From NCBI GenBank assembly GCA_014804755.1, contig JAAUZE010000008.1, forward strand, positions 100,109 through 164,108: a stretch of DNA of 64,000 nucleotides. Direction: 5' to 3'. Source of the DNA: Lachnospiraceae bacterium (lineage in GTDB: Bacteria; Bacillota; Clostridia; Lachnospirales; Lachnospiraceae). The number at the start of each line of letters is the position of its first letter. Positions within the stretch are counted from its first letter, which is position 1. Below the pieces are notes generated by a model. The model saw only the letters and a list, made by a program, of their open reading frames with translations. It did no database searches and was not told the DNA's origin. The translations under genes were made by a program, and so were the position numbers. Below are positions 3,423-34,685 of the stretch, piece by piece.

Positions 3423-4847
3423 ATGGATCCGGTTGTAGTATTTGGCGCAGGAACCGGCGGGAAGATCGTGAAGTGGATGCTGAATGATTTTGGTATTCCG
3501 GTCAGGGCCTTTACGGATAACGGCAAGGATAAGTGGGGTACAATACTGGACGGGATTCCGGTGATTCCTCCGGATTCTTTATATGATGACGAAAGCAGGA
3601 TTGTGATCGCAAGCACCTGGGAGAGTGAGATCAGGAAGCAATTGACTGAAATGGGATTGAAAGACCGTGTGGTTGAGAAAGAGGTCTTTATGTATCAATA
3701 CCTGGAACAAAGCGCGGGGGTATATTCCGACCTTTCCGGGTATCCGATCGACAGCAGTAAAAAGCCAACGTTTTTATTCGGCACGGATCTCGGGTTATAC
3801 CAGGGCGGCGTGGAGAGCTGGACCTATACGGTAGCGGACGAGTTAAGAAAAAGGGGATACGGGATCAAGATTCTGACCAATCAGACCTCGCAGCCTGCAC
3901 CGGAACGGTTTCAAAACGACACCTATTATCTGAATATGCGGGGGCGGGAATATTGCAGTGGTTTACGTGATACAGTCCATGTGATCATGGAAAATGCGCC
4001 CTGCGTGGTCATTGATTCCTGGCAGAGCATGACGATGCTTGCGGCGGCAATCGTGAAAAGGCAGAATCAGGTTGCTGTTCGACAACTGATAGAGATAGTA
4101 CATAATAATCTGCCACGGCTCTTTGGAATCGTGAAGAAATTTGAAGCTGAGATCAATGCCTGTATGGGAGTGAGCAGGGATATTAATCGGAGTCTGGTCG
4201 AAGAATATCAAATGGCGCCGGAGAAGGTGCATTATAAAGAGAGCCCGGTAAAATATGATGCAGGCATAGGGCGGGATTATATGTCTGACGAGAGTCAGCC
4301 GCTTCGGATCGGGTACGCGGCGAGGTTGTCGAAAAGTCAGAAAAGGGCGGATTTACTGCCGGAATTGATGGACAGACTGATGGAACGCAAGGTTCATTTC
4401 CGCATGCAGATTGCCGGAAGCGGAGCTCTGCGCGATATGATTCAAAACCATATCACGGAAAAGGGGTACGCGCAGTTTGTGTCCCTTACAGGCTATATTC
4501 CAAGGGAAGAGATGAATCGTTTTTGGAGCAGTCAGGATATTTTTATTAATCTGTCCGAATACGAAGGCACTAGTCTGTCAATGTTGGAGGCGATGGGGAA
4601 CGGATGTGTTCCGATCGTTACGAAAGTCGCCGGATGCGAGGAGTTTGTCGCAGAGGACATGGGATATCTCTGTGAAATCGGTGATCTGGATGCCATGGCG
4701 GAAAAAATTGCATATCTTGACCGGCATAGAGAAAAGCTTGGGCAGATGGGACAGAAAGCGTGTGAATCCGCTAGAAGAAAATGCAGTGTGGAAGCATATG
4801 TGGATCATCTGCTGGGATTGACGGCTGAGGGCAGGGAAAAGGGATAA
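3423..4847 (+). CDS. GT-B fold glycosyltransferase (GT4-like) with an N-terminal Rossmann-like extension
   Basis: The C-terminal motif EYEGTSLSMLEAMGNGCVPIVT is GT4-like. GGAGGAGG lies upstream of the ATG at 3423. The listed ORF start at 3321 overlaps the upstream gene and is unlikely to be used. Confidence 0.7.
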   Translation: MDPVVVFGAGTGGKIVKWMLNDFGIPVRAFTDNGKDKWGTILDGIPVIPPDSLYDDESRIVIASTWESEIRKQLTEMGLKDRVVEKEVFMYQYLEQSAGVYSDLSGYPIDSSKKPTFLFGTDLGLYQGGVESWTYTVADELRKRGYGIKILTNQTSQPAPERFQNDTYYLNMRGREYCSGLRDTVHVIMENAPCVVIDSWQSMTMLAAAIVKRQNQVAVRQLIEIVHNNLPRLFGIVKKFEAEINACMGVSRDINRSLVEEYQMAPEKVHYKESPVKYDAGIGRDYMSDESQPLRIGYAARLSKSQKRADLLPELMDRLMERKVHFRMQIAGSGALRDMIQNHITEKGYAQFVSLTGYIPREEMNRFWSSQDIFINLSEYEGTSLSMLEAMGNGCVPIVTKVAGCEEFVAEDMGYLCEIGDLDAMAEKIAYLDRHREKLGQMGQKACESARRKCSVEAYVDHLLGLTAEGREKG

Positions 4848-6490: not shown

Positions 6491-6967
6491 ATGAAAAAAG
6501 GCGGCGTAGCAGTATTTTCCACATTGGTCGGAGCGATTGCAGGGTTTGCGGGAAGCTCCTATCTGGGCAACAAGCAGGTTGCACAGAAGGCAGAGAAGGT
6601 TGACAAGTTCAAGGGTTATTACAACATGCTTAATCAGTGGCTTGTATTAAAGCAGGAGGGTAAATCCTTAGAGAAGTACTTCACGGACAACGGTTATAAG
6701 ACGATTGCCATCTACGGTATGGGAGAGATGGGAAACCGTCTGTATGACGAGCTGAAGGGGACTTCCGTAACCGTAAAATACGCGGTTGACAAAAATGCGG
6801 CAAGCACTTACTCCGAGTTGGATGTCATTGATCCCGAGGACGATTATGAAGAGGTTGACGCGATCGTTGTCAGCGCGATCTTCGCTTTTGATGAGATTGA
6901 GGAGATGCTGAGCGACAAAGTTGAATTCCCGATCGTATCCTTAGAGGATGTCGTGTACGAGGTATAA
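6491..6967 (+). CDS. Small membrane-anchored protein with a Rossmann-like module; function unknown
   Basis: Strong RBS (AGGAGGAAAG) and an N-terminal hydrophobic helix. The IAIYGMGEMGNRLYDEL segment resembles the N-terminal module of the 3423-4847 protein. Confidence 0.5.
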   Translation: MKKGGVAVFSTLVGAIAGFAGSSYLGNKQVAQKAEKVDKFKGYYNMLNQWLVLKQEGKSLEKYFTDNGYKTIAIYGMGEMGNRLYDELKGTSVTVKYAVDKNAASTYSELDVIDPEDDYEEVDAIVVSAIFAFDEIEEMLSDKVEFPIVSLEDVVYEV

Positions 6968-25831: not shown

Positions 25832-26404
25832 ATGATTCACATGAGTTCTTTATTGCAATCAACAAGAAACACGCGGGTGCTGCCGACAGGTACGATGCGA
25901 TATATTAGGAGCGATGTTCCGGAAAATTTGACTGGTCAGGAAATTCAGTGGCTGCTGGATCAGCATGTAACAACGATTGTGGATTTAAGGTCGGAGGAAG
26001 AATGTGTGAGAAGACCATGCTGTCTGAAAGGACAGGATGGTTTTAAGTATTTTCATCTCCCGGTTACCGGCGGTGGCGATACGCCCAAATCACTGGAACA
26101 TCTTCATGTGGTATATCGACAGATGATAGATGAAAAAATGGACAAGATCATCGATACAATCATGGGTGCGGAATCGAACGTGATGTATTTCTGTACAGCA
26201 GGCAAGGACCGTACCGGCGTCGTATCAGCAATGATCTTGAAACGGCTGGGATTCAGTAATGAAGTGATCATCAATGATTATATGGAGTCAAAGGATAATT
26301 TAATGGAGATGCTCACGGCATATGTGACTGAGCATCCGGAAGTGGATATCGAAATCATCATACCGCACAGGGAAAATATGGAACAATTGTTGAAACGTTT
26401 ATAG
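25832..26404 (+). CDS. Protein-tyrosine phosphatase-like protein (CX5R)
   Basis: The catalytic P-loop is FCTAGKDRTGV. Confidence 0.7.
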   Translation: MIHMSSLLQSTRNTRVLPTGTMRYIRSDVPENLTGQEIQWLLDQHVTTIVDLRSEEECVRRPCCLKGQDGFKYFHLPVTGGGDTPKSLEHLHVVYRQMIDEKMDKIIDTIMGAESNVMYFCTAGKDRTGVVSAMILKRLGFSNEVIINDYMESKDNLMEMLTAYVTEHPEVDIEIIIPHRENMEQLLKRL

Positions 26405-26513
26405 AGTTCAGAACGGTCACGTTATCAGGAACATACAAACGTGATGGAATTTTTTTGATGTAAATGCAAATGGCTTGTAATGGAGCAGAAAAGTCGGTAC
26501 GAGGTGACGAAAC

Positions 26514-27044
26514 ATGAGAAAAATCAGTTTATTTATTGCAATGAGCCTCGATGGGTATATAGCGGATAGTAAGGGCGGTGTCGATTGGCTGAAAGGACAA
26601 AGTAGCGATGAAGAGAATATTGACACCTATTCCGAGTTTGTAAAGAATATTGATACAATATTGATGGGGTGGAATACTTATCATCAAGTAGTTACAGAAC
26701 TTTCTCCCAATGAGTGGGTGTATAATGATTTTACAACTTATGTAATTACGCACAATGAGTATACTTCTTCAGAAAAAATTCGATTTACAAGCACAAATCC
26801 TGTTGATTTGATAAAAAGCTTAAAAAAAGAAAACGGAAAAGGTATTTGGATATGCGGTGGAGCTAATCTTATTCAGCAGTTAATAAATGAGGACTTAATT
26901 GACTGCTATTATATTACTATAATTCCAACACTTTTAGGCTCTGGTATTCGGCTTTTTGAAAATGCAAAATCTGAAATTAAGCTAAGATTGCGTAATATAC
27001 AGTCATATAATGGTATGGCAGATTTGATCTATACACGAAGATAA
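26514..27044 (+). CDS. Dihydrofolate reductase-like protein (RibD C-terminal domain family)
   Basis: MRKISLFIAMSLDGYIADSKGGVDWL and IWICGGANLIQQL. Confidence 0.7.
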   Translation: MRKISLFIAMSLDGYIADSKGGVDWLKGQSSDEENIDTYSEFVKNIDTILMGWNTYHQVVTELSPNEWVYNDFTTYVITHNEYTSSEKIRFTSTNPVDLIKSLKKENGKGIWICGGANLIQQLINEDLIDCYYITIIPTLLGSGIRLFENAKSEIKLRLRNIQSYNGMADLIYTRR

Positions 27045-27169
27045 CTTGGCATTTATAGAGGGGATGGATATGACGGAAAAAGCTTTATTGTGGAATAGAT
27101 TTATTGAGGGAATTTGTAAAAAGTGCGTGGAGAAAATTTTTCGGGAGATTAGGGCGTAAGTGAGCAGCA

Positions 27170-28165
27170 TCATGTGGAAACCTGTCTTTGCAGTCTCGCT
27201 TTCAGACTGTTCAGGAATCTTTCATTTTCGAGCACAGTAAGCATAGGCCCAAAGGACATGACTTCAATCAGCAGTTCGGTCTCCATATTCCGGTTATAAT
27301 AGATGACGCATTCATAGGTATCCTCATCTATTTTTGTAGTATTTTTTTCATAGTTTGCAAAGTGCAGCATGGCACGCTCAAGGGCATTGCGTTTGTTGAC
27401 AATGCGCAGTTTAAGAGGTTCTTTATAGTAAGAACGCTGAATCATCGCGTCTAAGTCCACAGGGGAGGATAGCGTTTTTGGCATCAGTTTTACGCTCTGA
27501 ATACGGGAAACATTCAGAATTTCCAGCTTCATTCTTCCGTCCGCTTTAGCTTCATGGTGCGAATCTGAATCAAAAGCCGGACGGCAAGGTTTCAAGGCGA
27601 GAATCCGGAATTTGTCATTTTTGACCGAGTATTCCAGACGGGCGGGGATATAGTGGTGATGTACGCGGTTCCCGTTGGGCGCGGTGTAGTCGATGTCCAC
27701 GTACTGTTTCTGTTTCTGTGCCTGAAGCAGAGTCCGAAAGCAGTGGCGGTAATTTTCATCCTCGTAAGGGTCGCTGTCGGCGAACCGATCGAAATAATAG
27801 AACTGTTCCGGTCTCCAAAGCGGAGCAACGGAAGCCAGCATTTTATCCAATGTTTCCAGCTGATCCTGTTCCAGGAACAACCCTATGCGCGGGTCGGACA
27901 GCAGTGCCTTAAGATAGGACTTCTCAAGGCTGGAAACAGGGGTGATAAAGGAGGATGAGAGACGGGAATGGTATAGCTTCCCATCCTTTTCAAATAAATT
28001 CCATGTCCCGTCTTCCAGCCTGGGGATTATGGAGAGCAGGCTCTCCTCAAAACCTTCGTCGCAGATCCGGCGGCGGATGTCTTGCATGGTCAGTGCGTCC
28101 TGACTGCACAGTAAATGTCTTAATACCTGGTAGTAACAGCTATATATTTCTGAGAATACTTCCAT
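27170..28165 (-). CDS. WYL-domain protein (WYL plus WCX-like C-terminus), partner 2
   Basis: The WYL-like core is VDIDYTAPNGNRVHHHYIPARLEYSVKNDKFRILAL...LEILNVSRIQSV. The C-terminal LKLRI...LIEVMSFGPMLTVLENERF is typical of the WCX extension. Confidence 0.55.
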   Translation of the reverse strand: MEVFSEIYSCYYQVLRHLLCSQDALTMQDIRRRICDEGFEESLLSIIPRLEDGTWNLFEKDGKLYHSRLSSSFITPVSSLEKSYLKALLSDPRIGLFLEQDQLETLDKMLASVAPLWRPEQFYYFDRFADSDPYEDENYRHCFRTLLQAQKQKQYVDIDYTAPNGNRVHHHYIPARLEYSVKNDKFRILALKPCRPAFDSDSHHEAKADGRMKLEILNVSRIQSVKLMPKTLSSPVDLDAMIQRSYYKEPLKLRIVNKRNALERAMLHFANYEKNTTKIDEDTYECVIYYNRNMETELLIEVMSFGPMLTVLENERFLNSLKARLQRQVST

Positions 28166-28180
28166 AGGTCTTCTTCCTTT

Positions 28181-29425
28181 TCAAGAGTTGTCCTTTATTT
28201 GGTACATCCGGCACATTGTCTGTAGATCCCGATAAAAGCGATGTTCCACGGATTTGTCCGTACATTCCAGAGACAAGATCCTGCCTATGAAGGTGCGGAT
28301 CCAGGGCAGCATCTCATTGCAGTCGAATACTTCTATTTCGTACTGATAAACATTACGTTCTATTCTTGTGACCGTACCGCCTCTGCCCTCACGCTTTAAA
28401 CGTTCCACAATATATTGTTCGGAAGGTTCCAGAGCCTGTATTGTCATAGTCAGCCGGTTAAGGTGGTGTCGGGCATTCCCCTGAAAGGATACGCCCCACA
28501 GATGGCAGCGGTTCCGATCCAGCTGTGCCAGCAGTTCCTCATATTTCTCCGATTGGTCTAAGAGAGTGACGGTTTTGACGGTATCCAGGCGGTAGCAGGT
28601 GAAACGCTTACTTTTTTTCGCATATCCGCATAGAAAACGGCGGCCGCTTCTGGTGCTGGTGAAAATCTGCAGGGGCGTACAGTCGGCGGTATTCAGTGCT
28701 CCGTTTTTGGAGCTTTTTATTTCCAGACGTACATCTGTCTTATGGTTCATGGCATTCAGAAGGTCGAAAAGGATTTCCTCCTCCAAAGTATGTACGCAGA
28801 AGCTGTGTTTCACCCGGAAGGTCCGGTTGTGATGATCAAACTGTTCCGAAAGGTGGTTTCCGATGATCCCGAAGCTCCCTGCCATCTGGTAAAATGCAAG
28901 GGCGTCCAGCATGCTCTCATTGGATTTTATCCAGACAGCCAGAGAATTATCGATGGAAAAAACGATGGTTTTCCCAGATTTCTTTTTATGTAACAGCCCT
29001 TCTTTTTCATAGGCGTTGCATTTTCGGCGAACGGTCTGTATATCGAACAGCGCCTCATATTTCTCAAGCAGGCCGCCTGTTATTTCCTCCGCAGTCAATT
29101 CTGCGCCGTCCTGAAGCAGATCAAGTATCAGAAAATGGAGCACGATATCGTTGTCGGTGAAGCTTTTCGTCTTCCATACCCGAAACAGAGGGTTGGTATC
29201 CAGCAGGTTACTGTCTATGGCGAGAGAAATGTTGGAGCCGTTAGACACATGGTCTTTCCGCACATGATTCCCAAGCCAGCTTTCCAGTCGCCTCCGTTCA
29301 TTGTCGTAGGTTCGGGGGCTTTTGTCCTTGAATTCATCTCTGGTCTTGAAGCCGTAGACAAAAAAATCACGCACATATTCTCTTGTTTTGGGAAAGCTTT
29401 TGACCAGCTCCTGAAAATCAGACAT
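28181..29425 (-). CDS. wHTH-WYL-WCX transcriptional regulator (PafBC/BrxR-like architecture), partner 1
   Basis: N-terminal winged-helix region. The WYL core is VRLEIKSSKNG...PLQIFTSTRSGRRFLCGYAKKSKRFTCYRLDTVKTV. The WCX-like tail is LTMTIQAL...MLPWIRTFIGRILSLE. Confidence 0.6.
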   Translation of the reverse strand: MSDFQELVKSFPKTREYVRDFFVYGFKTRDEFKDKSPRTYDNERRRLESWLGNHVRKDHVSNGSNISLAIDSNLLDTNPLFRVWKTKSFTDNDIVLHFLILDLLQDGAELTAEEITGGLLEKYEALFDIQTVRRKCNAYEKEGLLHKKKSGKTIVFSIDNSLAVWIKSNESMLDALAFYQMAGSFGIIGNHLSEQFDHHNRTFRVKHSFCVHTLEEEILFDLLNAMNHKTDVRLEIKSSKNGALNTADCTPLQIFTSTRSGRRFLCGYAKKSKRFTCYRLDTVKTVTLLDQSEKYEELLAQLDRNRCHLWGVSFQGNARHHLNRLTMTIQALEPSEQYIVERLKREGRGGTVTRIERNVYQYEIEVFDCNEMLPWIRTFIGRILSLECTDKSVEHRFYRDLQTMCRMYQIKDNS

Positions 29426-29632
29426 ATTGCCTCCGAATGACCGCCGTTTATGGCAGTTAGTTTTTATTTAGGAATAAATATAACACACTTCGCAACATTT
29501 TTGAAATGATTATTTGGAAAATGTTTCATATACTGATTTTAGTTCATCAAGCAAAACCATATAAAATGCGGCTTTGCATCAGGGAACGGAAGATGAACCA
29601 TATACAAGATAGGAAGAAAGGATGGAGAGGAT

Positions 29633-30865
29633 ATGTTCGTATTGTATAACGAGAATACAAGATTTCCGGTAAAGGTGTGGCTGAAAGATGAGAGTGGGCT
29701 GGAGGGAAAATGTCTGGAGCAGGCATACAACCTGTCGAAGCTTCCTTTCATACATAAATGGGTATGTCTGATGCCTGATACCCATGCGGGTAAGGGAATG
29801 CCCATCGGCGGAGTGATCGCCACAAAGGATGTGATCATCCCCAATGCGGTTGGGGTAGATATCGGATGCGGTATGGATTTTATTCCTACCAATATTCGCG
29901 TGGAGGACATAAAAGGCATTCAGACCGGAAACGGCACCCTGATCCAGTCCATCATCGGAAGCATCATGCGGACGATTCCGCTAAATACAGAGAGATACAA
30001 GGTTCCGCAGGAGTCGGAAGTGCTGGATCGTGCACAGCGGGAAATGGAAAAATATGAGGAGGATGCAGAGCTGGTGCCATTGATTGAGGACGGATATTTT
30101 CAGGTGGGAAGTCTGGGCGGCGGTAATCATTTTATCGAGCTTCAGGAAGATCAGGAAGGATATCTCTGCATTATGATCCACTCCGGAAGCCGTCATCTCG
30201 GAAAGGCAATCTGCGATTACTTCCATAAGAAGGCGGGAGAGCTGAACAGAATGTGGCACAGCGAAGTCAAGGATGAGTATCATTTGTCTTTCTTGCCTGT
30301 CCAGACAAAAGAAGGGCAGCAGTATATCAACTGGATGAATCTGGCGCTGGATTATGCCTTCGAGAACCGCGCCCGTATGCTGGATAAGACCTGTGGCATT
30401 GTGAAAGAGCAGATTGAGAAGCACACGGACCTCACAGTGGAATTCGGAGAGGAGATCAACTGCCATCACAACTATGCGGCATTGGAAAATCATTATGACG
30501 CTAATGTCTGGGTACATAGGAAAGGCGCTACCAGAGTGAGGGAAGGAGAAATGGCTGTGATACCGGGAGCCATGGGATCTTACAGCTATGTGGTGGAAGG
30601 AAAAGGAAATAAGGAATCCTTCTGCACCTCCTCCCACGGTGCTGGCAGAAGATACTCCAGATCCGGCGCCATGCAGGCATTCAGCACAGAGCAGGTCATG
30701 GTGGATCTGAAGGAACAGGATGTTGTGCTGGGAAAGCGCAAGAAAAATGATGTTGCCGAGGAGTGCCGGTTTGCCTATAAGGATATTGACCAGGTTATGG
30801 CACAGCAGCTGGACATGGTCACGCCGGTGAGGAAGTTAAAGACAGTGGGCGTGGTGAAAGGATGA
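29633..30865 (+). CDS. rtcB: RNA-splicing ligase RtcB (3'-phosphate/5'-hydroxyl RNA ligase)
   Basis: VGVDIGCGM, GGGNHFIEL, NCHHNYA, VHRKGAT, IPGAMGSYSYVV and SSHGAGR form the full RtcB metal/GTP-binding motif series. Confidence 0.9.
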   Translation: MFVLYNENTRFPVKVWLKDESGLEGKCLEQAYNLSKLPFIHKWVCLMPDTHAGKGMPIGGVIATKDVIIPNAVGVDIGCGMDFIPTNIRVEDIKGIQTGNGTLIQSIIGSIMRTIPLNTERYKVPQESEVLDRAQREMEKYEEDAELVPLIEDGYFQVGSLGGGNHFIELQEDQEGYLCIMIHSGSRHLGKAICDYFHKKAGELNRMWHSEVKDEYHLSFLPVQTKEGQQYINWMNLALDYAFENRARMLDKTCGIVKEQIEKHTDLTVEFGEEINCHHNYAALENHYDANVWVHRKGATRVREGEMAVIPGAMGSYSYVVEGKGNKESFCTSSHGAGRRYSRSGAMQAFSTEQVMVDLKEQDVVLGKRKKNDVAEECRFAYKDIDQVMAQQLDMVTPVRKLKTVGVVKG

Positions 30866-31049
30866 GCTCAGCGGGGGTCAAATACCCCGCAGTATACTGA
30901 ACAGAAAAGCTGATATGGTGTCAGTATACTGTGGGATATTTGACAAGGCACGGGTATTGGAAGTCACTTCCTGCCCGGCGGTGCCGACAGCGTGCTGTGC
31001 GGTATTCCACGAATATTCCAACCGGCTTAACGTGGTGTTAAGTGAAGGT

Positions 31050-31112
31050 TTGTGGTGTCGAGGGTTCGAATCCCTCCCGTGTAAACGGTAGCTCAGTGGG
31101 TAGAGTGCACAA
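31050..31112 (+). ncRNA. Circularly permuted tRNA-like module (YrlA/Y-RNA-like tRNA mimic candidate)
   Basis: Read 5' to 3': TTGTG, GTGTC, T arm GAGGG-TTCGAAT-CCCTC, CCGT-GTAA-ACGG, TA, D arm GCTC-AGTGGGTA-GAGT, G, CACAA. The terminal 5-mers are perfectly complementary. Confidence 0.5.
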
Positions 31113-31122
31113 CATTATGGCA

Positions 31123-31152
31123 AGACCTGTAAAGTCTGCGGTTCGAATCCGC
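31123..31152 (+). ncRNA. Second partial tRNA-like module (anticodon-arm-like hairpin plus T arm)
   Basis: AGAC-CTGTAAA-GTCT has a 7-nt loop of the form CU-GUA-AA. It is followed directly by GCGG-TTCGAAT-CCGC. Confidence 0.4.
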
Positions 31153-31447
31153 CCAAAGCAATACTTTTATCCCGATTTCAGGCAAATTCTGCATCTCTGT
31201 GAAGCGCAAAGGATTGCGAAGCAGGGAAAGCGTGAGGGCGCCAAATCAGTCTGCGGCCTGAAGGCCGGGGATACCGCAGATCGGAAGGAGGAACAACACT
31301 CTGTAAAGAATATTGAGAAACGGTGATGATATCCCTTTACAGAGTGCCCTTCCTCCCCACGGTCTGCTGAACCGGGCTTCCGCTTCAGACTGATGAATGA
31401 GGGATATCAGTATTACTAAAACAAATTAAGATCAGGAGGAGTAAGTT

Positions 31448-32554
31448 ATGAAGTATATTATCAGAGATAATCAGGCAGGGTTTGTATTGAAGAATGGCGT
31501 ATTTCAAAAGATGATCACCGCGGGAACCTGGCATTTTCCTAAGATAGCAGGTTACACGGTCGAGATTGAGGAGATGTCGAATGAACTGGATTATCAGGAG
31601 GTTCCCTATCAGGTGCTTTCCGGAGATGCTGCATTCCTTAATGCCACTGTACATACGGAAATACCGGATGGCTCTGTGGGTTTCATCTACATGAATGGCA
31701 AGCTGACAGCCTTTGCGAGCAGGAAGGATTATGTATTCTGGAATGTGTTTGATACGTATGAGGTCAAAGTTGTGTCCATGGCGGAGACGTTCATCGGAGC
31801 AGAAGTGACGAAGCAGATGCTTTCGCTGGTGCCGAAGCACCTTTATACGGAGGTGTCGGTGGGAGAGGGAGAAATCGGTCTGGTATACTATGACAACGTC
31901 ATGCAGACCCCACTTTCCAAAGGCGTATATCGTTTCTGGAATTACCATCATGTCGTTTCCTGCTGCGTGATTGATATGAAGCAGAAAGAACTGGATATCG
32001 TGGGTCAGGAAATTCTGACCAAAGACAAGATAGGCATCAGAATGAACGTTGCATGCATGTATAAAATACGGGATGCAGTAGAATTCGTTGCAACGATCTC
32101 GGATCTGAAAGGACAGCTTTACCCTGCGGTACAGCTTGTGATCAGAGAGGTCGTGGGCAATTACAAGCTGGACGAGATACTGGAGGCAAAGGAGCAGATC
32201 TCCGGGGAAATCTACGAGGCGCTTAAGGGGCGGGAAGAGATGTTCTGTGTGAATTTCCTCACCGCGGGAATCAAGGATATCATACTGCCCGGCGAGATCA
32301 GGGAGATCATGAATTCTGTCCTTGTGGCGGAAAAGGCAGCTCAGGCAAACGTGATCGCCAGAAGGGAGGAGGTGGCCTCTACCAGATCTCTGCTCAACAC
32401 GGCGAAGCTTATGGACGAGAACCAGACACTCTACAAGCTGAAGGAGCTTGAGTATCTGGAGAAGATCTGTGAGAAGGTAGGCGACATATCTGTCAATGGC
32501 AATGTGGGAATCATGGAGCAATTGGGGAAAATGATGGGGACGAGACAGGGATGA
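31448..32554 (+). CDS. SPFH/band-7 (slipin-like) domain protein
   Basis: The RBS is AGGAGGAG. The SPFH core is IREVVGNYKLDEILEAKEQISGEI, followed by a coiled-coil tail, AEKAAQANVIARREEVASTRSLLNTAKLM. Confidence 0.65.
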   Translation: MKYIIRDNQAGFVLKNGVFQKMITAGTWHFPKIAGYTVEIEEMSNELDYQEVPYQVLSGDAAFLNATVHTEIPDGSVGFIYMNGKLTAFASRKDYVFWNVFDTYEVKVVSMAETFIGAEVTKQMLSLVPKHLYTEVSVGEGEIGLVYYDNVMQTPLSKGVYRFWNYHHVVSCCVIDMKQKELDIVGQEILTKDKIGIRMNVACMYKIRDAVEFVATISDLKGQLYPAVQLVIREVVGNYKLDEILEAKEQISGEIYEALKGREEMFCVNFLTAGIKDIILPGEIREIMNSVLVAEKAAQANVIARREEVASTRSLLNTAKLMDENQTLYKLKELEYLEKICEKVGDISVNGNVGIMEQLGKMMGTRQG

Positions 32555-32596
32555 TCTAATTAGTTCTTCATGTTTTGGTTATATTGTGTTAAAATA

Positions 32597-32629
32597 ACAG
32601 ATATGGCTCCGGCGGGGAGCCATATCTGT
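32597..32629. terminator. Strong GC-capped hairpin, probably a terminator
   Basis: ACAGATATGGCTCC-GGCGG-GGAGCCATATCTGT is a 14-bp perfect stem. The T-tract is weak on the plus side and better on the minus side. Confidence 0.5.
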
Positions 32630-32728
32630 GTTATAAATTCAAATTTGTTTAAACAACCATTACTACAACTGAATAAATAACACAACGTCAGAGCGAAATC
32701 CCAATCGTAATTCACGGAGGAACATAGA

Positions 32729-33163
32729 ATGATAAAACAGGCAGAACAAGCAGATGCGTTAACCTTGGCAGAATTGGCAATCCAGATGTGGGAAGACAAT
32801 ACCATATCGGAGCTGGCATCCGAATTTGCGGAAATGATTGGCAGCGAGGATGCGGCTTGCTTTATTCAATATGCGGAGGACAAGCCGATCGGATTTGCGC
32901 AGTGTCAGCTTAGGCATGACTATGTCGAGGGCACGGAGACATCACCGGTCGGTTATTTAGAAGGAATCTTTGTTCAGGACGAGTTTCGCCATAAAGGCTA
33001 TGCAAAAGAACTGCTGCAGGAATGCGAAAAGTGGGCAAAGGGAAAAAACTGTTCTGAATTTGCAAGTGATTGTGAATTAGACAATGTGAATAGTCTCAAA
33101 TTTCATTTGGCAATGGGGTTTGAAGAAGCCAATCGGGTTATTTGTTTTCGAAAAGACATTTGA
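32729..33163 (+). CDS. AAC(6')-I-like aminoglycoside N-acetyltransferase (GNAT)
   Basis: IGFAQCQLRHDYVEGTETSPVGYLEGIFV...GYAKELL...ASDCELDNVNSLKFHLAMGFEEANRVICFRK closely parallels the remembered AAC(6')-Iy/Ic-type sequence pattern. Confidence 0.6.
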   Translation: MIKQAEQADALTLAELAIQMWEDNTISELASEFAEMIGSEDAACFIQYAEDKPIGFAQCQLRHDYVEGTETSPVGYLEGIFVQDEFRHKGYAKELLQECEKWAKGKNCSEFASDCELDNVNSLKFHLAMGFEEANRVICFRKDI

Positions 33164-33201
33164 GCAAGGTTAATTGATGCGGGACGAAAGGAATATATAA
33201 A

Positions 33202-33633
33202 GTGGAAAAGCTGAATCAGGAAACAAAAAAGATCATGGAAGAACGGTTCGGAAAAGACAATATTATCGCATTGGCGACGTTGGAAGGCGATATGCCCAGC
33301 GTCCGCAATGTGGACGGATTTTATGAGGATGGGGCGTTTTATACGATCACGTATGCGCTTTCCGACAAAATGAAGCAGATCGAAAAAAATCCGAATGTGG
33401 CGATTGCGGGAGAATGGTTTACCGCGCATGGGAAGGCGGTCAGTCTCGGTTATTTTGGCAGGGCGGAGAATGAGGACATTGCCGGAAAGTTGCGGACGGC
33501 TTTTGCAGAGTGGATTGATAACGGACACAACAATTTTGAAGATGAAAACACAGTCATCCTCTGTGTGCAGCTGACGGACGGTGTTCTTTTTTCACAGGGA
33601 GCAAGATACGAAATTGATTTTAGTGCGGATTGA
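33202..33633 (+). CDS. Pyridoxamine 5'-phosphate oxidase-family (general stress protein 26-like) protein
   Basis: IIALATLEGDMPSVRNVDGFYEDGAFYTIT...NPNVAIAG is a PNPOx-like split barrel. The start codon is GTG. Confidence 0.55.
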   Translation: MEKLNQETKKIMEERFGKDNIIALATLEGDMPSVRNVDGFYEDGAFYTITYALSDKMKQIEKNPNVAIAGEWFTAHGKAVSLGYFGRAENEDIAGKLRTAFAEWIDNGHNNFEDENTVILCVQLTDGVLFSQGARYEIDFSAD

Positions 33634-33650
33634 GGAGGGAATAGAAGACC

Positions 33651-34091
33651 ATGATTCATTTTGAAGCGATAACGGAAGAAAATTTTGATGCGGTCATCCA
33701 AATGAAGCGTCCACCGGAGGAGCATTTTGTAGCGTCAAATGCGTACTCTCTTGCGCAGGCGTGGCTGTATCGGGATGCGGGCGATGTGTATCCGTTTGCG
33801 ATCTGCAATAGCGGCGTATCGGTCGGTTTTATGATGCTGGATGAGGATTTGGAAGAACGCTGCCTCATCATATGGAGGATCATGTTCCCGCCGGAGCATC
33901 AGAACCAGGGTTATGGAACACAGGCCATCCAAGAGATTATTCGCATGGCCAAGGAATCCGGGAAATATGATTTTTTGCTTCTGAACTGCGCGCCCGAAAA
34001 TCACATTGCGGCGCATGTTTATGAAAAGCTGGGATTCAAACCGACCGGCGTTGTCAGTCACGGAGAGACGGAGTTAAAGCTGCTTTTTTGA
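33651..34091 (+). CDS. GNAT-family N-acetyltransferase
   Basis: PPEHQNQGYGTQAIQEIIRMAK is motif A. Confidence 0.7.
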   Translation: MIHFEAITEENFDAVIQMKRPPEEHFVASNAYSLAQAWLYRDAGDVYPFAICNSGVSVGFMMLDEDLEERCLIIWRIMFPPEHQNQGYGTQAIQEIIRMAKESGKYDFLLLNCAPENHIAAHVYEKLGFKPTGVVSHGETELKLLF

Positions 34092-34148
34092 AGCTATATA
34101 ACATTTTTAAGAGGCAGAATGTTTCTGATGACAAGGAGGAGTACGCCT

Positions 34149-34685
34149 ATGAAAAGATGCAGATTATCCTATGATGAATGGAAATGTATCCTGTCAAAAG
34201 AGATGACCGGCAAAAGAGTGGTTGGGGACTTTTTTGAGGGATATATTGGTCTGATCGACATTCGACAGGTAAGTGAAGTGCAGAAATGGAAATTGGGCGG
34301 GGAAGAGATCGTGGTCTGCGACGGAGGCATCAAATGGCTGAGTATTTTGCCGCAGAATGATTTTTATTGTATCACTGCCATGATGAATGAAAAAAGCGAT
34401 ATATTGTTATGGTACATTGATATGATCGCGGGTCAGGGAACGGATACGGACGGTATGCCGTGGTTTGACGATCTGTACTTGGATCTGGTGGTTTATCCGA
34501 ACGGAGAAATTAAAGTGGATGACATGGATGAACTGGAAGAAGCGCTGCGGCAAAAAGACATCACGCAGGAACAATTTGATCTTGCGCTTCATACGGCCGA
34601 TCAATTGAAAAAAGGATTGTTAAAGGACATCCATTCTTTTAAGGACTATACATATGCATGCTATGAGCTCCTATGCAAAGATTGA
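34149..34685 (+). CDS. DUF402-domain protein (nucleoside di/triphosphatase-like)
   Basis: WYIDMIAG...FDDLYLDLVVYPNG...DELEEAL is the DUF402 pattern. AGGAGG precedes the ATG at 34149. Confidence 0.6.
   Translation: MKRCRLSYDEWKCILSKEMTGKRVVGDFFEGYIGLIDIRQVSEVQKWKLGGEEIVVCDGGIKWLSILPQNDFYCITAMMNEKSDILLWYIDMIAGQGTDTDGMPWFDDLYLDLVVYPNGEIKVDDMDELEEALRQKDITQEQFDLALHTADQLKKGLLKDIHSFKDYTYACYELLCKD

Follow-up and report, generated by a model that had tools for sequence, protein, structure and literature searches.

RtcB is an RNA 3'-phosphate/2',3'-cyclic-phosphate ligase; the bacterial enzyme is conserved and its operon stress-induced, with natural substrates and cofactors that are poorly defined. 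In the abstract of a 2016 study in Nucleic Acids Res, Burroughs and Aravind reportedly singled out SPFH/Band-7 modules, accompanied by a novel tRNA-like molecule, as potential cofactors with a scaffolding function. Here we analyse the 582 nucleotides (nt) between rtcB and an SPFH/Band-7 gene of a Lachnospiraceae bacterium, located at 30866-31447 of the window, by which we mean the whole analysed stretch of 64,000 nt (positions 100,109 to 164,108 of contig JAAUZE010000008.1, assembly GCA_014804755.1). That positions 30933-31414 are a real, conserved, structured RNA we hold as virtually certain, and that this RNA works with SPFH and RtcB as highly probable. With some reserve, we propose that this segment encodes a single structured non-coding RNA of ~480 nt, or two adjacent cut RNAs, in the middle of an rtcB-RNA-SPFH operon, and that it is processed and has a tethering role.

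The closest described system is the association of RtcB, a Band-7 protein and a tRNA-like non-coding RNA that a preprint by Wang et al. (2018) reports from Burroughs and Aravind 2016 (bioRxiv 10.1101/312249). According to that preprint, the RNA, b7a-tRNA (band-7-associated tRNA), strongly resembles authentic tRNA and was not validated by experiment as of 2018, RNAs of the b7a type are proposed as ligation cofactors with a scaffold role, and YrlA-like RNAs occasionally adjoin Band-7 genes (bioRxiv 10.1101/312249). A search of the full-text literature for 'b7a-tRNA' returned this preprint only and no later validation report, and Rfam has no family for it. A 2026 paper describes the rtc locus of Pseudomonas aeruginosa as containing an SPFH gene (PMC13086221). 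The second point of comparison is YrlA (RF02553; Chen et al. 2014), a bacterial Y RNA that carries a tRNA-like domain, defined by a long stem joining the 5' and 3' ends, a Ro-binding helix, the 5' motif GNCGAAN0-1G and a position within 4 kb of a same-strand gene for the TROVE-domain protein Ro60/Rsr (PMC4201824). Y RNAs tether Ro60 to an effector protein such as PNPase.

The present locus is a considerably larger Firmicute form of the module predicted in 2016, a Band-7 protein plus a tRNA-like RNA next to RtcB. As a prediction the association is already known; new are the size of the RNA, its multi-domain covarying architecture, the lack of a cloverleaf and how strictly it is linked to a soluble SPFH protein. 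The genomic association is that of b7a-tRNA, the tRNA-like RNA adjoining both the RtcB and the Band-7/SPFH gene. Unlike b7a-tRNA, the RNA has no cloverleaf: ARAGORN finds no tRNA over the whole window, and the Rfam tRNA match scores 21.5 bits against a threshold of 29 and runs from a D-arm to a second T-arm, without an acceptor stem. Compared by description only, the 5' junction domain and the rod listed below are not mentioned in the available account of b7a-tRNA. Judged from covariation, the ~480-nt RNA has three parts, a 5' three-way junction, a permuted tRNA mimic with further arms, and a 255-nt rod, arranged between the two genes as follows.

29633-30865, plus strand: rtcB, 410 aa, first gene of the unit (Pfam RtcB, E = 3.6e-108)
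30933-31019, plus strand: 5' three-way-junction domain, in which helix P0 encloses helices H1 and H2
31050-31112, plus strand: circularly permuted tRNA-like module, with a partial YrlA match and covariation in all four helices
31160-31414, plus strand: rod domain of 255 nt, from RNAalifold on trimmed constructs
31448-32554, plus strand: SPFH/Band-7 ('slipin family') gene, 368 aa (Pfam Band_7, E = 2.3e-26), close homologues of whose product carry the database name 'slipin family protein'

On the plus strand, the 582 nt folds at -229.4 kcal/mol, compared to -179.6 +/- 6.2 for dinucleotide shuffles (z = -7.98; 0 of 100 shuffles equal the native energy), and the minus strand gives z = -7.2. Using RtcB as query, we collected 80 loci, one genome per species, mostly from Lachnospiraceae and also from Clostridium, Ruminococcus, Oscillospiraceae, Paenibacillaceae and Bacillales. 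Sequence homologous to the gap is detected by blastn directly 3' of rtcB in ~45 of the 80, with the top block at 30948-31184 and others near 31245-31310 and 31345-31421. Mechanical translation of the gap yields open reading frames (ORFs) of 58 aa and 94 aa; the frame of the latter (31042-31326) is interrupted, by stops or frameshifts, in most of the 32 relatives that were aligned, the longest ORFs of the homologous gaps vary in position and strand, and no frame is conserved, in agreement with a preliminary description of this DNA that had seen no credible ORF. The RNA is absent from Rfam 15, no family of which matches the gap at its gathering score. At E-values up to 10, only a partial YrlA match, a partial tRNA match and chance microRNA-type matches on long hairpins appear, while the models of ROOL, GOLLD, OLE, HEARO and raiA give no match to the gap and YrlA at gathering threshold gives none in 15 related loci. 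Among the families that the preliminary description had singled out, a link to YrlA was therefore found, in part and below threshold, and none to ROOL or GOLLD.

An origin from tRNA genes in decay, from a spacer that is palindrome-rich by chance or from an overlooked gene for a small protein would be compatible with the lack of an ARAGORN tRNA and of any Rfam family at gathering score, and with the existence of the 58- and 94-aa ORFs. Such a non-functional origin is refuted by strong compensatory covariation over more than 100 base pairs, as detailed below, and is at odds with the conservation of the element across Firmicute families and the lack of conservation of the ORFs; we assign it next to no probability.

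The 5' half contains the following helices.

30933-30942 with 31010-31019, plus strand: helix P0, whose strands change together between clades
30952-30976, plus strand: helix H1, with covariation supporting the pairings GGGUA/UGCCC and GGAAG/CUUCC
30981-31005, plus strand: helix H2, with covariation, starting with GTGCC
31026-31042, plus strand: hairpin H3 (CUUAAC-GUGGU-GUUAAG), variable in sequence and length, with 4 of 6 pairs doubly changed

From 23 aligned core sequences, RNAalifold derived a consensus of 48 pairs, 14 of them compensated, on which a covariance model of 216 positions (R1) was built. R1 yields full-length matches at 110-243 bits in 36 loci, and in several more distant loci partial matches (model positions ~100-162) that cover the tRNA-like module only. 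In a wider alignment of 33 sequences including the leader (A3), a structure of 13 helices and 65 pairs was tested: standard pairs occupy 94.7% of cells versus 38-46% when the 3' partners are slid by 1-3 columns, doubly changed pairs number 31 of 65 versus 10-16 in the slid controls, and the covariation score is 0.240 versus 0.056-0.076, values reached by 0 of 500 column shuffles. The two strands of P0 remain complementary as they change: most loci have GGAAAUAAUUUAU/AUAAAUAUUUC, the window's clade has GGGAUAUUUG/CGAAUAUUCC, locus L043 has GAAGGAAUUAU/AUAGUCCUUC and L049 has GGACAUAUUAC/GUAAUAUGACC. Compensated forms of H3 include GUGCAG/CUGCAC in L007 and CCUGAC/GUCAGG in L008. The junction domain further conserves the joiner GGCG and the motif GGUGCC...GGUAU(N)CC, which in H2 is near-invariant and kept even in distant loci. 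A pseudoknot between CCA (31007-31009) and UGG (31118-31120) is retained as a candidate; both strands are invariant in A3, with anecdotal CCG/CGG in L053 and L071.

The complementary segments listed in the preliminary description are all present, within 1-3 nt of where they had been placed. The stem it had drawn at 30948-30986 is preserved in its inner pairings, GGGUA/UGCCC and GGAAG/CUUCC, which covary, and lost in its outer pairing GGCAC/GTGCC, given that GTGCC starts H2. The CTTAAC/GTTAAG hairpin at 31026-31042 and the two T-arm-containing modules at 31050-31152 gain covariation support.

These modules are made up of the arms below.

31060-31076, plus strand: T-arm of the module, with the T-loop GGUUC.A..CC invariant in A3
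31077-31088, plus strand: acceptor-like 4-bp hairpin with GNRA-type loop, which covaries
31091-31106, plus strand: D-arm, with D-arm/D-loop positions largely invariant in A3
31123-31137, plus strand: anticodon-arm-like hairpin (AGAC-CUGUAAA-GUCU), whose 4-bp stem covaries (helix 12)
31138-31152, plus strand: second T-arm (GCGG-UUCGAAU-CCGC), whose stem covaries (helix 13)

The order within the permuted module is UUGUG/CACAA stem, GUGUC, T-arm, acceptor-like hairpin, UA and D-arm, where the closing UUGUG/CACAA stem is the equivalent of an anticodon stem and GUGUC is variable-loop-like. The Rfam YrlA model matches 31052-31113 with its positions 23-88 of 114 (35.7 bits, E = 5.8e-6), i.e. precisely the T-arm, acceptor-like hairpin and D-arm. 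Because the match spans these three elements and the elbow bases are conserved, the module is a circularly permuted tRNA mimic of the YrlA type; YrlA has the same permuted order of T-arm, loop-closed acceptor-like hairpin, D-arm and anticodon-stem-like clamp, and is likewise encoded in an RNA-repair operon beside rtcB. A tRNA cloverleaf (RF00005) is not formed, since the arms come in permuted order and the acceptor-like helix, a 4-bp hairpin, is closed by a loop instead of joining the 5' and 3' ends. Together with the adjacent hairpin at 31123-31137 the module represents all four tRNA arms, and this hairpin may stack under the UUGUG/CACAA stem, completing an L-shape. The module is also the sole part of the RNA matched in the distant loci. 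Anticodon-like loops were read off the A3 alignment, an automatic tally being unreliable; they are mostly 7 nt long, usually with YU at the start and AA at the end, and comparable hairpins with CUUAAAA loops follow the module in the distant loci L065 and L070. The second T-arm lies ~77 nt past the first T-loop in most loci and is missing in some distant ones. Its loop has no obvious D-loop partner, because the sole D-arm is positioned for the first T-loop.

The likeness to tRNA could alternatively reflect a sentinel or decoy, in which mimic and anticodon-arm-like hairpin are cut by invading tRNA-targeting nucleases and the RNA soaks up toxin or yields ends; in one variant the cut ends would be resealed by RtcB or sensed by WYL-domain proteins, in the manner in which tRNA halves are proposed to activate RtcR. 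The retained tRNA elbow nucleotides, the mostly 7-nt YUNNNAA-type loop of the next hairpin and the conservation of two WYL-domain proteins beside rtcB in 61 of the 80 loci are in line with this idea. However, the 'anticodon' triplet varies freely among species on a stem of just 4 bp, an RNA downstream of rtcB is made only after the operon is already on, and no role is left for the SPFH protein or the 255-nt rod. We consider a sentinel improbable.

The 3' half consists of the rod, with the following elements.

31160-31173 with 31401-31414, plus strand: rod-closing helix, AAUACUUUUAUCCC with GGGAUAUCAGUAUU, starting just past the second T-arm
Beyond the closing helix, plus strand: pairing UUC/GAA of the rod consensus
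31181-31242, plus strand: variable branch
31245-31253 with 31386-31394, plus strand: rod helix
31265-31268 with 31372-31375, plus strand: pairing CCGG/CCGG
31269-31275 facing 31368-31371, plus strand: asymmetric internal loop, GGAUACC facing UGAA, between covarying helices
31276-31279 with 31364-31367, plus strand: pairing GCAG/CUGC
Within 31283-31293 and 31349-31356, plus strand: pairing GGAAGGA/UCCUUCC
31294-31349, plus strand: variable tip

For this half, the variable hairpins of 17 loci were cut out, with conserved blocks as guides, and the remainder aligned (A4). RNAalifold on A4 independently gives one long rod of 42 pairs, 26 of them compensated, with 88.8% of cells paired versus 38-52% for slid partners, 26 of 42 pairs doubly changed versus 12-16, and a covariation score of 0.415 versus 0.08-0.17. 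Nearly every main-clade locus has the closing helix, with differences that compensate each other, for example UACUGUUAUCCCG/CGGGAUAACAAUA in L019 and CUUCUGUC/GACAGAAG in L014, with others in L035, L036, L056 and L067. The long-range helices, P0 and the rod-closing helix, organise the RNA into two large domains. The conservation and covariation among relatives on which the preliminary description had made its interpretation depend are hence found in both halves (31 of 65 and 26 of 42 pairs doubly changed, with ~10-16 in slid controls), and its large, ornate non-coding RNA attached to the RNA-repair operon is borne out by homologues in ~45 of the 80 loci, covarying helices and a YrlA-like core.

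Within the internal loop of the rod, AUACCG is invariant and GG nearly invariant in A4, and in a regular-expression census of 49 SPFH-linked gaps, 40 carry the motif GRAUACC 3' of the tRNA-like module; we regard this loop as a candidate docking site for protein or RNA. Local structures described earlier in this half had to be redrawn. The proposed TCTGCGG/CCGCAGA hairpin gives way to long-range pairing of UCUG and GCAG, each within the rod, and the CGGCC-TGAA-GGCCG hairpin nested in it falls into a rod segment with some bases paired to distant partners and part unpaired. Of the 75-nt hairpin, the base (GGAAGGA/UCCUUCC) is conserved as the distal part of the rod and the tip is variable.

Several further contacts were tried and not adopted. 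A kissing contact of GGUAU(N)CC (31001-31008) with the rod loop at 31267-31275 (GGGGAUACC) is unsupported, as A is the usual base at N and results in an A-G mismatch; a U-to-C change in L014 and L047 agrees with H2 and not with the contact. At the GA/GA juxtaposition next to the closing helix and at the rod loop, the 3-nt bulge geometry needed for a K-turn is absent by reading. A pairing of UAUCCCGAUUUCAGGC with block B is recorded as unexplained, RNAalifold favouring the rod. As separate observations, the conserved rod helix GGAAGGAGGAA/UUCCUCC (31286-31291, 31350-31356) includes a Shine-Dalgarno-like AGGAGG, and its UUCCUCC strand resembles the anti-Shine-Dalgarno CCUCC, with no start codon at a usable distance.

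The RNA follows rtcB closely. From the rtcB stop to H1 there are 18-25 nt in 13 loci, and the 5' strand of P0 starts 0-10 nt past the stop, leaving no room for a separate promoter unless it lies inside rtcB. A consensus scan of the plus strand from rtcB to SPFH finds no terminator-like site, as the preliminary description had noted, and its suggestion of co-transcription is strengthened: since the RNA starts a few bases past the rtcB stop in many relatives, it is almost certainly co-transcribed with rtcB, as far as sequence can tell. Most likely it is made within an rtcB-RNA-SPFH transcript and then released by processing. The leader ahead of it contains one more structure.

30876-30944, plus strand: long clade-specific hairpin, in the window, L001, L002, L003 and L025 only

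The leader containing this hairpin folds at ~-38 kcal/mol, and no second copy of the hairpin arm is found within the window. Its 3' arm contains the 5' strand of P0, so the two structures are mutually exclusive, and the hairpin could mask P0 until the leader is cut off. Hairpins that had been described at 30871-30935 are accordingly no part of a conserved fold, being confined to the closest relatives L001, L002, L003 and L025.

Processing raises the question of one molecule or two. Cleavage of the transcript may yield separate head (~30933-31155) and rod (~31160-31414) RNAs, each possibly with its own partner, like YrlB and YrlA beside rsr. Each covariation-backed helix lies within one half, P0 closing the 5' domain and S1/S3 the rod, and no supported pairing joins the halves, the GGUAU/AUACC complementarity being unsupported. 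In addition, M. smegmatis YrlA and YrlB are processed from a single shared precursor (PMC4201824), and distant loci retain the tRNA-like module while other parts diverge. Against such a division, the halves are only ~7 nt apart, head and rod motifs co-occur in most SPFH-linked gaps, and a processing site is not visible in the sequence; the division would alter the number of molecules and not the function. On balance, we deem two separate RNAs possible, if unlikely.

The RNA is present in 48 of 49 loci with SPFH downstream, the exception being L054, where SPFH is truncated, and in 3 of 28 loci without SPFH, being absent in 25. The RNA thus tracks the SPFH gene and not rtcB alone. The three SPFH-less carriers have the tRNA-like module only. 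The SPFH-less loci L009 (6214-6331) and L020 (6220-6324) keep fragments only, with the 5' domain in both and a piece of the second T-arm in L020, which suggests that the RNA decays after SPFH loss. In the Oscillospiraceae loci L076 (7153-7212, 7465-9003) and L080 (6973-7028, 7359-8828), the module precedes not SPFH but a DUF2828 + DUF7788/vWA-type protein of 489-512 aa, with a domain order reminiscent of Ro60. A TROVE relationship of DUF2828 was sought and could not be shown, and a PDB sequence search with the DUF2828 protein was uninformative. The YrlA-type tRNA mimic is hence a portable module, paired with either SPFH or a DUF2828 + vWA-type protein. The Bacillales locus L069 has, as an additional insert that separates the permuted module from the second T-arm, a true cloverleaf at 6701-6771 (Rfam tRNA 50.9 bits; ARAGORN 'tRNA-Thr agt'), which probably represents b7a-tRNA in its canonical form.

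Linkage to SPFH could also arise if the structure were a cis-acting leader, controlling SPFH translation, stability or transcription, or rtcB:SPFH dosage, with no role as a free RNA. It does lie directly 5' of SPFH in the same orientation and the two are lost together, and enterobacterial SPFH homologues also have a long leader with a T-arm-like hairpin. However, the hallmarks of a riboswitch or attenuator leader are lacking: there is no terminator or antiterminator and no terminator-like site on the plus strand, and the SPFH ribosome-binding site (AGGAGG, 31434-31439) is outside the fold, 20 nt past the last conserved helix. Between the 3' strand of the rod and the SPFH start there are 29-33 nt in the window and anything between 19 and 131 nt in most main-clade loci, a structure of 480 nt that includes a full tRNA mimic far exceeds the needs of known leaders, the same module stands before the unrelated DUF2828/vWA gene in other loci, and the module resembles the trans-acting YrlA. 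A purely cis-acting leader is therefore very improbable in our view.

The enterobacterial homologues, annotated as 'slipin family protein' in E. coli and Citrobacter, are full-length and ~32% identical. A nucleotidyltransferase gene lies 3' of the slipin gene in both genera, and the Citrobacter slipin gene is transcribed divergently from rtcR. The slipin leader (L149 4679-4819, Citrobacter freundii; L148 ~4677-4821, E. coli) contains the T-arm-like hairpin UGGGUUCGAUUCCCA and, by reading, a sigma-54-type promoter sequence (TGGCAC...TTGCA); ARAGORN and the Rfam tRNA and YrlA models give no match to it. In a Subdoligranulum locus, two very weak partial R1 matches lie 2-3 kb upstream of an SPFH homologue, at a site that by appearance resembles an ordinary tRNA. 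Similar DNA was not found in phage and plasmid collections, and none of 67 viral contigs with the T-loop-to-D-arm pattern encodes RtcB, SPFH or WYL homologues. Cultured carriers are Petralouisia muris NM01_1-7b (L027), Sporofaciens musculi WCA-9-b2 (L059) and Lachnospiraceae bacterium JLR.KK009 (L050).

Based on the fold, its conservation and its co-occurrence with SPFH, the best reading is that the RNA is a scaffold or cofactor of an RtcB-SPFH repair particle. The working model is that of the Ro60 (Rsr)-Y RNA-PNPase particle of Deinococcus radiodurans, in which an RNA enzyme is held to a ring/cage protein by an RNA that binds this protein through a stem and the effector through a separate module; there the proteins are Ro60 and PNPase, whereas here they would be SPFH and RtcB, with binding proposed. 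In a specific form, which we put forward tentatively, the rod would bind the soluble, presumably oligomeric SPFH protein via the conserved loop, and the tRNA-shaped head would offer a handle to RtcB, tRNA-handling enzymes or broken tRNAs. In this way the RNA would tie RNA ligation to an SPFH scaffold, in analogy to Y RNA and Ro60. In agreement with a soluble protein, no membrane helix is predicted in the SPFH protein (maximal Kyte-Doolittle 19-residue mean of 1.17).

Several points weigh against a scaffold or tether role of this kind. Binding of the rod to SPFH is a guess, and the AlphaFold model of the SPFH protein is unusably poor (mean pLDDT 46.7). A promoter within the 3' end of rtcB may exist, and in the window's clade the extra hairpin at 30876-30944 competes with P0. 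R1 gives no match in the enterobacterial rtcR-slipin loci. The YrlA match misses the gathering score (35.7 versus 69 bits), and, unlike YrlA, the RNA lacks the terminal Ro-binding stem and the motif GNCGAAN0-1G, for which reasons the Y-RNA analogy is structural only. In keeping with this, YrlA model positions 1-22 and 89-114 are unmatched in the window, the flanks of the UUGUG/CACAA stem do not pair together as read from the alignments, and GNCGAAN0-1G is not found in 30866-31447 and is sporadic in relatives. As with YrlA, processing from a polycistronic transcript is probable. Further differences are that a TROVE domain was not matched in the ten neighbouring genes scanned (25832-34685), that the partner gene is SPFH instead of Rsr, and that the RNA has ~4 times the length of YrlA, adding the 5' three-way junction, the second T-arm and the 255-nt rod.

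A more ambitious and rather doubtful possibility is that the element represents an undescribed class of multi-domain RNA of ~0.5 kb, the architectural RNA of a cytoplasmic SPFH-cage/RtcB particle and a bacterial counterpart of Ro/Y-RNA and vault particles, in which recruitment of damaged tRNAs or of the ligase would fall to the tRNA-shaped head, and the SPFH oligomer would be organised by the rod. Vaults comprise the major vault protein, TEP1 and vault RNA, and the shoulder domain of the cage protein is stomatin/SPFH-like. The likeness consists in an SPFH-like cage, a TROVE-domain protein and a small structured RNA, where in the loci studied here SPFH alternates with DUF2828 + vWA. Vaults differ in being eukaryotic, in having RNAs that are not tRNA mimics and in lacking a ligase; the likeness is conceptual. 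The size class (~0.5 kb), many covarying helices, occurrence in Firmicutes and obscure biochemical function are shared with ROOL, GOLLD, OLE, HEARO and raiA; unlike these, the RNA is found in a fixed operon setting and its core is recognisable as a tRNA mimic.

Upstream of rtcB, the window contains a divergent gene pair.

27170-28165, minus strand: WYL-domain gene, 331 aa (PADLOC WYL match)
28181-29425, minus strand: WYL-domain gene, 414 aa (PADLOC WYL match)

The PADLOC E-values for the 331- and 414-aa pair are 4.8e-9 and 1.2e-8. Homologues of the 414-aa protein carry the source name 'WYL domain-containing transcriptional regulator'. Pfam by itself barely picks up the domain: the WYL match of the 414-aa protein (E = 0.0016) falls short of the family cut-off, the scan of the 331-aa protein gives no WYL match, and PDB sequence searches with the WYL proteins were uninformative. 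Both genes occur in the 61 rtcB loci referred to above, upstream of and divergent from rtcB in 59, and in the shared neighbourhood the divergent pair is followed by rtcB, from which a gap of 410-1000 nt leads to SPFH. The pair are candidate regulators of the rtcB unit, and may be PafBC-like, standing in for the CARF regulator RtcR. At the other end of the unit, a perfect 14-bp G+C-rich hairpin lies at 32597-32629, 43 nt past the SPFH stop; the scan scores it as a terminator on the minus strand only, and it probably also ends the rtcB-RNA-SPFH unit.

In conclusion, the locus makes the 2016 prediction directly testable, as it provides an RNA with defined ends, a covariation-backed structure of more than 100 base pairs and a candidate protein site. 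The portable tRNA mimic is relevant to a wider question, namely why tRNA look-alikes are recruited again and again by systems of RNA repair and RNA surveillance. Should the particle model be true, it would assign an RNA-linked function to soluble bacterial SPFH proteins and extend by one the short list of large structured RNAs in bacteria.

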